This document shows, piece by piece, positions 4,262 to 7,565 of a DNA stretch of 20,976 bases. The stretch's first letter is position 1; each line of letters opens with the position of its first letter. Origin of the DNA: a virus (lineage: Duplodnaviria; Heunggongvirae; Uroviricota; Caudoviricetes); IMG/VR virus record IMGVR_UViG_2880378312_000001. One strand, written 5' to 3'. Under the pieces are notes generated by a model that was given only the letters and a program-made list of their open reading frames with translations, was not told the DNA's origin and ran no database searches. The position numbers were made by a program, and so were the translations under genes.

Positions 4262-5500
<1,239 letters not shown>

Positions 5501-5514
5501 TTTATGTTTCTGTA

Positions 5515-5548
5515 AAAAGCCCGTAGGTATCAACTGCGGGCTAAATTT
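5515..5548. terminator. Hairpin between convergent genes; probable intrinsic terminator, better U-tract on the minus strand
   Basis: Stem agcccgtag / ctgcgggct (9 bp with one G-U) around a 7-nt loop; on the minus strand it is followed by TTTTTAC. Confidence 0.4.
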
Positions 5549-5575: not shown

Positions 5576-5971
5576 CTAAAAAATGCCAGTCTTCACGTTG
5601 CTTGTTCCAGCATTAAAGATGTATGTGCTGACTTTTTCGCCTTTGAAAGAAACTGTCAGAGATTTAGTTTGTGAGTCTGCGCCACCTGCAAGCAGTCCCA
5701 CAACGGGGATGAAAGAGGTTGCTTTGGACTGGCTGTTATACATAGTGTATGACCATTGTTCTTCACCATCGATCAAAGAACGGCTGTCAGGTTCACCGAA
5801 CGATGCTAACACGTCCTGTTTTGTAGTTTTGCCTTTAACAATTTTGGTTTTCACACTTTCCTGCGTCTCATTTTTCAATGACTGGTTGCCTACTGAAGAA
5901 CAACCTGCCAAGGTCAGAAAAACGAATCTATATGAGAGTTTTTTGTACCTGAGACTAAATCGCCCTCCCAA
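5576..5971 (-). CDS. Putative lipoprotein whose native 5' end is replaced by IS30-derived sequence; ORF-track start at 5971 is a TTG inside the IS30 remnant
   Basis: Lipobox FLTLAGC-SS then a hydrophilic mature region. Sequence above about 5927 belongs to IS30, so the first ~14 codons of the ORF are IS30-derived. Confidence 0.4.
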   Translation of the reverse strand: MGGRFSLRYKKLSYRFVFLTLAGCSSVGNQSLKNETQESVKTKIVKGKTTKQDVLASFGEPDSRSLIDGEEQWSYTMYNSQSKATSFIPVVGLLAGGADSQTKSLTVSFKGEKVSTYIFNAGTSNVKTGIF

Positions 5972-6669
5972 TGCCCTAGAGAGCGTCTGTTATCGATATT
6001 TCGGGAACGTTCGTGAATTGGTGTTCCGTTCACTATGTTAATCGTACCTCTTTCGCCTTTGCGGGTATGACGCCTGCCATGGCGAAGGCTATGCGACCGT
6101 CGCAGATGCTGTATATTCAGGTGGTGTAGCGCTTCACGGCTACGAAAGTACAGCGTTTTATAAATTGTCTCAGGTGATATTCGCAGCGTTTTTTGACGTG
6201 GTTTTGTTCGCCTTAACCATCCTGATATTTGCTCTGGAGACCATTTCATCTCCAGCTTTTCCAGAACAAGCTTTCGCAATGGTAAATTTTGATCCAGTAA
6301 GCACGGTTTTGGCCTTTTCGCCATTCTGTTGGCTCGGTTATTAGCATCAACAGCTTTGTAATAGCGTCTGCCCCGATTACGCTGAACTTCACGTGAGATC
6401 GTCGAAGGACTGCGATTCAGCGCAGTAGCTATCGCACGAATGCTCATTTTGGCTGACAAACCAGCTCGTATCTCCTCGCGCTCAGACAGTGTCAGGTGAG
6501 CTACAGCCCGCTTACGCTCATGGGGTTTTATGCCGCCAGTATCCCTTAACATAGTGAAGATCGTTCCGGGTTTTGAACCCAGGATATTCGCTATTTCACT
6601 GAAGCCTGTTCCGTTCTTCCATAGTTCAAAAACAGAGGCTTTTTCCTCTGCTGTAAATGTTCGTCTCAT
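5914..6669 (-). pseudogene. insI: IS30 transposase, C-terminally truncated (about 247 of 383 aa retained)
   Basis: N-terminal HTH region and start of the DDE domain recognised from memory; premature stop after junction-derived residues DSFF. Confidence 0.8.
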
Positions 6670-6731
6670 TCAAAAAACCTCCGCAACCCCATGTTTTCAC
6701 ATAACTGTTGCGTTGACCAATTGAATCTACA
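5927..6731 (-). mobile_element. IS30 remnant: left inverted repeat plus about the first 247 codons of the transposase; 3' third missing
   Basis: Reverse complement of 6717-6731 is TGTAGATTCAATTGG, the IS30 terminus as I recall it. Transposase ORF matches IS30 InsI from MRRTFTAEEKASVFELWKNG through DLVSGTKNSHI, then diverges (DSFF-stop). Confidence 0.8.
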
Positions 6732-6745
6732 GTGGTCTGTTTTAA

Positions 6746-6804
6746 TATTTCTATTTCTATTTCTATTTCTATTTCTATTTCTATTTCTATTTCTATTTCT
6801 ATTT
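6746..6804. repeat. Hexanucleotide microsatellite (TATTTC)x9 plus a partial unit
   Basis: Nine perfect units at 6746-6799 then tattt; begins 15 bp outside the IS30 terminus. The overlapping ORF 6691..6939 (poly-LF) is an artefact. Confidence 0.95.
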
Positions 6805-6998
6805 GTTGTGATTTTTTCTTTAGTTCATGTATTTCGATTTGTTTCTGAATTATCGGGGGTAGTGTCTTCCCTTTTCCCTGAGGCTTATCATGCAGTTATT
6901 TTCGCCATCTTGGTATTGTGGAAATACCGACATCCATAGCTTTGGTGAGCTCTGTTCAGGTGGCCAAATTCAGAAAACCATTACGGAGGAAGAAGGCG

Positions 6999-7565
6999 AT
7001 GGCTAAACCAGCGCGAAGACGATGTAACCGTAAAAGAGAAGATTTAACTGTTAAAAGGATATTTGAGTTACTAAGTTTCGATAAATCTACCGGGGTATTT
7101 AGATGGAAAGTTCCCACTCAGGGAAGGATAGCATTAAATAGTGTTGCTGGAGCTTTTGATTCCAACGGTTATTCAATGATCATGATAGATGGGCGTAGAT
7201 ATAAAACTCACGTCTTAGTTTTTTACATAACTCATAATCGTTGGCCTGCTGGTCAAATTGACCACGTTAATGGAATTAGGACCGACAATAGGCCAGAAAA
7301 TTTAAGAGAATGCCTGCCAATAGAAAATTCAAGAAATATAAGGATCCGAAAGAATAGCAAATCAGGTTGCAGAGGGGTTACTTGGCACAAACGACAGAAA
7401 AAATGGAATGTTAGGCTAGGATTCCATGGCAAGAGTAAACACTTCGGATGCTTTGATGATCTGGAGTTAGCGGTACTAGTTGCTGAAGAAGCCCGAGATA
7501 AGTATTACGGTGATTTTTCCGGCAACGAAAGGAGCACTTATGCGAATCTATCGAAGGAAATGTAA
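6999..7565 (+). CDS. HNH endonuclease with AP2-type DNA-binding domain (homing-endonuclease-like); start taken at MAKPARRRC
   Basis: HNH motif [18 protein letters not shown]2-like segment [48 protein letters not shown] before ATG 6999. First nine residues match the N-terminus of lambda NinG as I recall it. Confidence 0.65.

Follow-up and report, generated by a model that had tools for sequence, protein, structure and literature searches.

A hypermutable hexanucleotide repeat beside IS30 in an E. coli O157:H7 prophage remnant is the typing locus TR1/VNTR-9 and lies within a decayed IS911-like pseudogene

A perfect array of the hexamer TATTTC separates a truncated IS30 from an HNH endonuclease gene in a degenerate prophage, and the locus raises the question of what this repeat is, where it came from, and whether its length matters to the genes that follow it. 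The window (the whole stretch of DNA that was analysed, 20,976 nucleotides) covers a prophage that is integrated next to ssrA and also harbors espM2 and espW. Tandem Repeats Finder (TRF) describes the tract as (TATTTC)x9.83, with period 6, 9.8 copies, 100% matches and the consensus TATTTC, and a regular-expression search recovers nine complete units with a trailing TATTT; both agree with the nine copies, and with the exact position, given in the initial annotation. With the base composition of the window, about 1e-27 perfect 59-base period-6 runs would be expected in it by chance. The distances reported earlier were also right: the repeat begins 15 bp from the IS30 end, as the IS30 terminus is at 6731 and 14 bases intervene before the tract starts at the 15th, and the HNH start codon, placed by the RefSeq annotation of EC4115, is found 194 bases past the tract end, which had been given as about 200 bp upstream of the HNH and ninG genes. 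The features of the locus are collected in Table 1.

Table 1. Coordinates of the repeat, its flanking elements and the published primer sites in the window.
Feature	Position	Strand	Basis
Truncated IS30 (left inverted repeat and N-terminal 247 transposase codons)	5929..6731	-	EC4115 annotation; Pfam HTH_38 matches
PulseNet VNTR-9 reverse primer site, within IS30	6489..6519	+	Exact match; primer from PMC3321953 Table A1
Noller TR1 pair, one primer, within IS30	6597..6616	+	Exact match; primer from PMC2246123 Table 2
14-base ancestral spacer gtggtctgttttaa	6732..6745	-	Identical in IS30-free relatives
(TATTTC)x9.83 perfect tandem repeat, MLVA locus TR1 / Vhec4 / O157-9 / VNTR-9	6746..6804	.	TRF, primer identity
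IS911-like (IS3 family) orfA remnant, ~residues 27-76, in-frame stops	6805..6949	-	tblastn, blastn
Noller TR1 pair, other primer, within orfA remnant	6877..6896	-	Exact match
Left-terminal inverted-repeat remnant of IS911-like element	6950..6984	-	Comparison by eye; exact tip approximate
PulseNet VNTR-9 forward primer site, spanning HNH ribosome-binding site and start codon	6988..7014	-	Exact match
HNH endonuclease gene, first downstream	6999..7565	+	EC4115 annotation; Pfam HNH_3 matches

The gene order after HNH is ninG, a Ser/Thr phosphatase and a Q-type antiterminator, according to the EC4115 annotation. The first HNH codons contain an imperfect 20-base tandem duplication (7017-7057; 2.0 copies, 80% matches). 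Further along, positions 16338-18898 hold the type III effector genes espW, DUF1076 (NleG-like) and espM2, again by EC4115 annotation, and the end of the prophage remnant adjoins ssrA just beyond the window. The triplex-forming (H-DNA) potential of the tract was considered and rejected by inspection: the purine-rich strand is broken by T, and the unit has no mirror symmetry.

The tract is a known strain-typing VNTR of E. coli O157:H7. It reportedly received the name TR1 from Noller in 2003, Vhec4 from Lindstedt in 2003, O157-9 from Keys in 2005 and VNTR-9 from PulseNet (Hyytia-Trees, 2006). The identification follows from the exact match of both published primer pairs on the flanks of the tract and from the unit itself, as a run of TATTTC read in another phase gives CTATTT, whose reverse complement, AAATAG, is the unit listed for locus TR1 (PMC2246123 Table 2); the synonymy of the four names is set out in Table 1 of both PMC3321953 and PMC3768571. 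No difference from the published locus was found in primers, unit, 6-base length or polymorphic range. The allele present in the window has 9 units (9.83 copies) and is identical to that of EC4115 over a compared stretch of 601 bases that includes the repeat. The repeat itself is already known and is no discovery; it has served as an MLVA subtyping marker in the tracing of O157:H7 outbreaks for about two decades.

The initial annotation had considered the tract prone to slippage, and had proposed a comparison of copy number among related genomes. Whole-unit differences in copy number were indeed detected among hundreds of complete genomes. With a 601-base query that crosses from IS30 through the repeat into HNH, matches to most of the query were obtained in 277 complete genomes, and the match spans in O157 genomes (601, 637, 643, 649, 655, 673 and 679 bases) differ by multiples of 6. 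Units counted directly in O157 genomes were 4 in ECP19-198, 9 in EC4115 (and in the window) and 22 in Z1831. Around 30 genomes with the IS30 junction, taken at even intervals from the ranked matches of a 211-base query, contain 11 alleles ranging from 6.8 to 21.8 copies. Direct counts in 40 loci ranged from 3 to 22 units, and from 3 to 17 in those that lack IS30; the lowest count is 3 perfect units, and perfect units alone were counted at that locus. The distribution of alleles is broad and continuous over the 3 to 22 range, without clustering on particular lengths.

Published data point in the same direction. For VNTR-9, 15 alleles spanning 6-23 repeats have been reported, at a diversity index of 0.90 (PMC3321953), and the diversity of TR1 is 77% (PMC2246123). 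In serial passage, single units were inserted at the VNTR-9 locus, and its mutation rate was 1.3e-4 per generation (PMC3777172). Proneness to slippage is thus borne out both by whole-unit differences among genomes and by unit insertions in serial passage (PMC3777172), and copy number is anything but invariant across strains; it was invariance that had been named as speaking against a regulatory role. Variable copy number is, however, a sign of instability only and says nothing of function. Some IS30-free lineages (loci L005, L020, L027, L032, L037, L038 and L040) carry interrupted arrays, with the variant units TACTTC, TGTTTC, CATTTC and TAATTC at the array ends; such interruptions could be lineage markers, and they may stabilise the tract.

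A second perfect hexamer array, (GCCAGA)x20.7, was detected by TRF at 5281-5404, 1.3 kb from the TATTTC tract; the initial annotation did not connect the two. The TR2 primers match exactly at 4977-4994 and 5521-5538 and bracket this array, which is the MLVA locus TR2 (also Vhec1 and O157-10). TR2 resembles TR1 in being a perfect hexamer array of the same prophage remnant with exactly matching published primers. In contrast with TR1, it is longer and lies in an open reading frame, where it is read as (Pro-Glu)n. That frame (4262-5500, plus strand) encodes a hypothetical protein of 412 residues, and its length is 1359 bases in EC4115, 1233 in Z1831 and 1239 in the window; the only Pfam match of the protein is sub-threshold and compositional, to a Pro-Glu repeat family (PARP). 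A rate of 1.8e-3 per generation has been published for TR2, the most mutable O157 VNTR and more than 10 times faster than TR1 (PMC3777172).

Where, then, does the TATTTC array lie? By sequence comparison, the repeat and both of its flanks are recognisable as a decayed IS911-like orfA pseudogene on the minus strand. In a tblastn search, residues 24-83 of IS911 OrfA align with the minus strand of the window (E = 7e-19, 55% identity) with stop codons in frame and without a start; by blastn against a phage collection, positions 6782-6945 match the IS911 of phages Sf6 and SfII (73% identity, E = 5e-17), the match running antisense to IS911 orfA. On the minus strand the array is (GAAATA)n and encodes (Glu-Ile)n in the frame of the pseudogene, and the spacer on its other side (TTA AAA CAG ACC AC, L K Q T) prolongs the same frame. 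In relatives without IS30, the tblastn alignment is collinear on either side of the repeat, ...KKKPQQ T(EI)n LKQTTTFLMSYSLNN, and the fuller locus protein aligned to IS911 OrfA reads ...IEIHELKKKPQQ-T(EI)n-LKQTTTFLMSYSLNN. The reconstructed orfA fragment had no Pfam match, and its assignment is based on tblastn and blastn.

The remnant has lost most of what a working element would need. A block of 24 bases, CTGAATTTGGCCACCTGAACAGAG (6950-6973, minus strand), is identical by eye to 24 bases near the left end of IS911, and an internal deletion joins it straight to around orfA codon 27, with loss of the start and about 25 first codons. Of orfB, only a 32-residue N-terminal stub was found by tblastn in IS30-free relatives, and nothing in the window. 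Thus, two marks of the IS3 family can be recognised, namely an IS911-related terminal inverted repeat (the identical 24-base block) and, by tblastn, an orfA homologue with helix-turn-helix and leucine zipper, though with stops and no start; a complete orfB, for the DDE transposase, is missing, as is the second of the terminal repeats, as expected of a remnant and not of a live member. The minus strand from 6732 to 6984 is collinear with the left end and orfA of IS911, with the repeat in place of the IEMENEI codons. Unlike IS911, the element in the window is dead: the orfA start is deleted, stops interrupt the frame, and orfB has been wholly cut away by IS30. The IS911-like element is old as well as dead. 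Its tip lies about 15 bases 5' of the HNH start codon, against the ribosome-binding site (GGAGGAAG, ~6986-6993), and this junction admits two readings: either the IS landed at the 5' edge of HNH or the HNH gene, often mobile, inserted beside the IS.

No clear closer intact parent element emerged from complete E. coli genomes, where the matches looked at were either the locus itself (at least 95% identity, 515 records) or IS911-like copies at 60-80%; a further 43 records fall at 80-90%, and the single one listed spans only 34% of the query. The 60-80% group comprises around 4,400 E. coli records, and those listed are annotated as IS3/IS911-family transposase. A search of GTDB representatives (one genome per species) for exact copies of the 43-base right flank gave no match.

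Comparison of the two DNA sequences suggests how the array may have arisen. IS911 has CAAC GC ATT GAA ATG GAG AAT GAA ATA TTA AAA AAG GCT ACC at this site, and the locus in IS30-free relatives has CAAC AA ATA (GAA ATA)n TTA AAA CAG ACC ACC, the window ending in ...ACC AC. The array occupies the position of ATT GAA ATG GAG AAT GAA ATA, that is, I-E-M-E-N-E-I in the leucine zipper, a segment made of three imperfect GAAATN units; the locus differs from IS911 in having 3-22 perfect ones. Most likely, the array derives from this GAAATN proto-repeat, which would have been homogenised and expanded after the IS died. The expansion step was reconstructed solely from the comparison with IS911, at ~73% nucleotide identity; among the loci counted, none was found to retain the proto-repeat in its unexpanded state. 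An origin of the repeat in IS911 orfA was not found in the papers searched.

Altogether, we put at roughly nine in ten the probability that the tract, the published TR1/VNTR-9 VNTR located in dead IS911-like DNA, is a selectively neutral hypermutable marker and no regulator. During replication, the nascent and template strands would misalign by one or more 6-base units, as general microsatellite knowledge and the published passage data suggest, and whole units would be gained or lost at ~1e-4 per generation. Because the tract sits in dead DNA, its length appears to be under no constraint. The IS911-like element would have decayed beforehand, leaving the deletion joint between terminal repeat and orfA, the stops in orfA and, in relatives only, the orfB stub; the imperfect GAAATN units of the dead orfA would then have been homogenised and expanded. 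Later still, in the O157:H7 lineage, IS30 entered this pseudogene at a distance of 14 bases from the repeat, with replacement of the DNA beyond, as comparison with IS30-free relatives shows.

An alternative is that the tract acts in the manner of a contingency locus, its copy number altering promoter spacing or strength, or read-through, and thereby tuning HNH, ninG and the Q antiterminator. In its favour, the tract is hypermutable and lies 194 bases upstream of the first gene in a same-strand cluster, and intact Stx1 phages hold the same tract between the early region and Q-stx1. However, a consensus scan restricted to sigma-70 sites found no promoter-like hexamer pair on either strand between 6500 and 7100, where shuffled sequences average 1.4, and a terminator scan of the same interval found just two weak terminator-like hairpins (6855-6871). 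Folding of the plus-strand RNA from 6732 to 7000 was no better than that of shuffles (z = +1.0), with the repeat fully unpaired. The ~180 bases between the tract and the HNH ribosome-binding site consist entirely of dead IS911-like remnant oriented away from HNH, and in O157 the DNA upstream is the end of IS30, with its transposase gene pointing away from the repeat. Units of six bases preclude frameshift switching by copy number, and the broad spread of alleles, from 3 to 22 units, shows no favoured lengths. In the literature found, no function has been assigned to the locus.

The comparison with the contingency loci of Haemophilus and Neisseria is instructive. The O157 tract shares with them a hypermutable short tandem repeat and slipped-strand mispairing, but its unit is a multiple of three, and there is neither a live gene nor a linked phenotype; the tract lies neither between -35 and -10 hexamers nor early in a live coding sequence where unit changes would shift the frame, the places expected of a phase-variable repeat. 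Hence, the proposal that the repeat is a spacer altering downstream expression finds no support in the sequence, with no promoter-like site, no structure, no shift of frame and dead DNA in between, and we regard a contingency-type role as very unlikely.

A narrower version of the regulatory idea concerns the RNA. The predicted transcript of the tract has no G, is unstructured and presents a UC dinucleotide every 6 bases, features that could in principle load Rho. In intact prophages the early rightward transcript must cross the tract to reach Q and stx1. A (UAUUUC)n RNA in intact lambdoid or Stx1 prophages might therefore provide a length-dependent site for Rho loading or RNA binding, a speculation to which we give only a slim chance; a weak effect of the tract on read-through would have a probability of a few percent. 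If this speculation were true, slippage would generate heritable cell-to-cell differences in Q read-through and in late-gene and toxin expression.

The repeat might also be protein coding. On the plus strand it is covered by a small ORF of 60-64 residues, MSYHVVEKLFSEYDIRNVVVCFN(IS)nVCCGFFFSSCISICF, which could be a real protein with its length set by the repeat. RefSeq lists a hypothetical protein of this kind in 2014C-3050 and TW05614 (WP_001430471.1 and WP_001428177.1; L002 2921-3103 and L003 2909-3103), with (Ile-Ser)n as its middle part, and a hexamer unit always preserves the frame, so that ORF length changes with copy number. Yet the ORF has no Pfam match, is called in some genomes and not in others with the same DNA, and runs antisense to a recognisable transposase pseudogene, its open frame being explained as a consequence of the repeat. 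Furthermore, IS30 has removed the start and first 18 codons of the ORF in the window, and the repeat still varies among O157 strains. A genuine protein at this place seems highly unlikely, and the small (Ile-Ser)n ORF is probably a spurious gene call.

The relationship between the repeat and IS30 was examined by comparison of 40 loci. The left inverted repeat of IS30 is TGTAGATTCAATTGGTCAACGCAACAG on the minus strand and ends at 6731; the IS30 pseudogene itself covers 5929-6669, and correspondence with the EC4115 RefSeq annotation indicates that its C-terminal third and right end are missing, a truncation that the initial annotation did not note. IS30 sits in the orfA pseudogene, 14 bases off the repeat, and its transposase gene reads away from the repeat. 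In 7 loci, the window included, the junction is ...IS30 end tgaatctaca|gtggtctgttttaa(TATTTC)n, while the 33 loci without IS30 share both the repeat and its 14-base left spacer, ...caggaatgtg|gtggtctgttttaa(TATTTC)n. Repeat and right flank occur together in 515 complete genomes of E. coli, among them O111:H8, O26 and O145 strains, and the IS30 junction in only 277. Inducible Stx1-converting phages SH2026Stx1 and AU6Stx1 also carry the repeat without IS30, and in four IS30-free genomes it lies between an opposite-strand gene of 590 residues and the same HNH gene.

Since 33 IS30-free loci carry both, the spacer and the repeat are ancestral, and IS30 came later, in the O157:H7 lineage. The idea that the repeat is a by-product of IS30, made either by its insertion or by the rearrangement that truncated it, has proximity (14 bases) as its sole support, and is exceedingly improbable in view of the 33 IS30-free loci, of a spacer that runs on into the IS911-like pseudogene, of the 515 genomes with repeat and right flank versus 277 with the junction, and of the continuous pseudogene reading frame of the IS30-free alleles, which argues against precise excision. 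A trace left by the event behind the IS30 junction should be absent from alleles without IS30, and the 33 loci refute that reading. Hence, slippage is what survives of the earlier interpretation: the IS30 footprint falls, and the regulatory role remains unsupported.

Directly next to the IS30 copy is a small gene (5576-5878, minus strand) that encodes a BamE-domain lipoprotein. In IS30-free relatives, the phage DNA to the left of the repeat comprises the 590-residue gene, ninE and a Dam methylase gene, all of which are replaced in the window; the replacing block (1-2651) contains two tyrosine recombinases and a DNA-binding protein, and a third recombinase lies just outside. The 590-residue hypothetical gene (WP_000612805.1; L002 901-2673, minus strand, with equivalents in L004, L005 and L010) is found between ninE or the Dam methylase gene and the repeat, both in IS30-free prophages and in Stx1 phages, in a position and orientation typical of phage accessory cargo. 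In PEC240 the repeat is separated from HNH by an IS3 (L006 1774-2936), and Z1323CEC0014 has an IS2 within ninG (L041 3396-4624). Across strains, four different insertion sequences (IS30, the IS911-like remnant, IS3 and IS2) thus occur within ~1.5 kb.

The position of IS30 has a consequence for typing. One primer of each published pair lies within IS30, so that the VNTR-9 assay amplifies the IS30-prophage junction. Both PulseNet primers are present in all seven IS30-junction loci, with predicted amplicons of 496-604 bases, and the IS30-side primer sites are missing beside the repeat in all 33 IS30-free loci. Strains with the repeat but without IS30 at this site should therefore score as null alleles, as predicted from primer placement; the IS30-free carriers seen were non-O157 EHEC prophages and Stx1 phages. 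Null alleles at VNTR-9 have been reported at 31.7% (PMC3321953), and absence of IS30 may account for part of them. Literature searches for a link of VNTR-9/O157-9 with IS30, Sp17 or null alleles, and for EDL933 Z3935 and Z3936, returned nothing beyond MLVA papers, and in the papers searched no mention was found that one primer of each pair falls within IS30.

The origin in IS911 orfA and the primer inside IS30 are details of minor weight. Nevertheless, the repeat illustrates in a concrete case how a microsatellite may form in a bacterium, starting from an imperfect proto-repeat in coding sequence that is no longer under selection.
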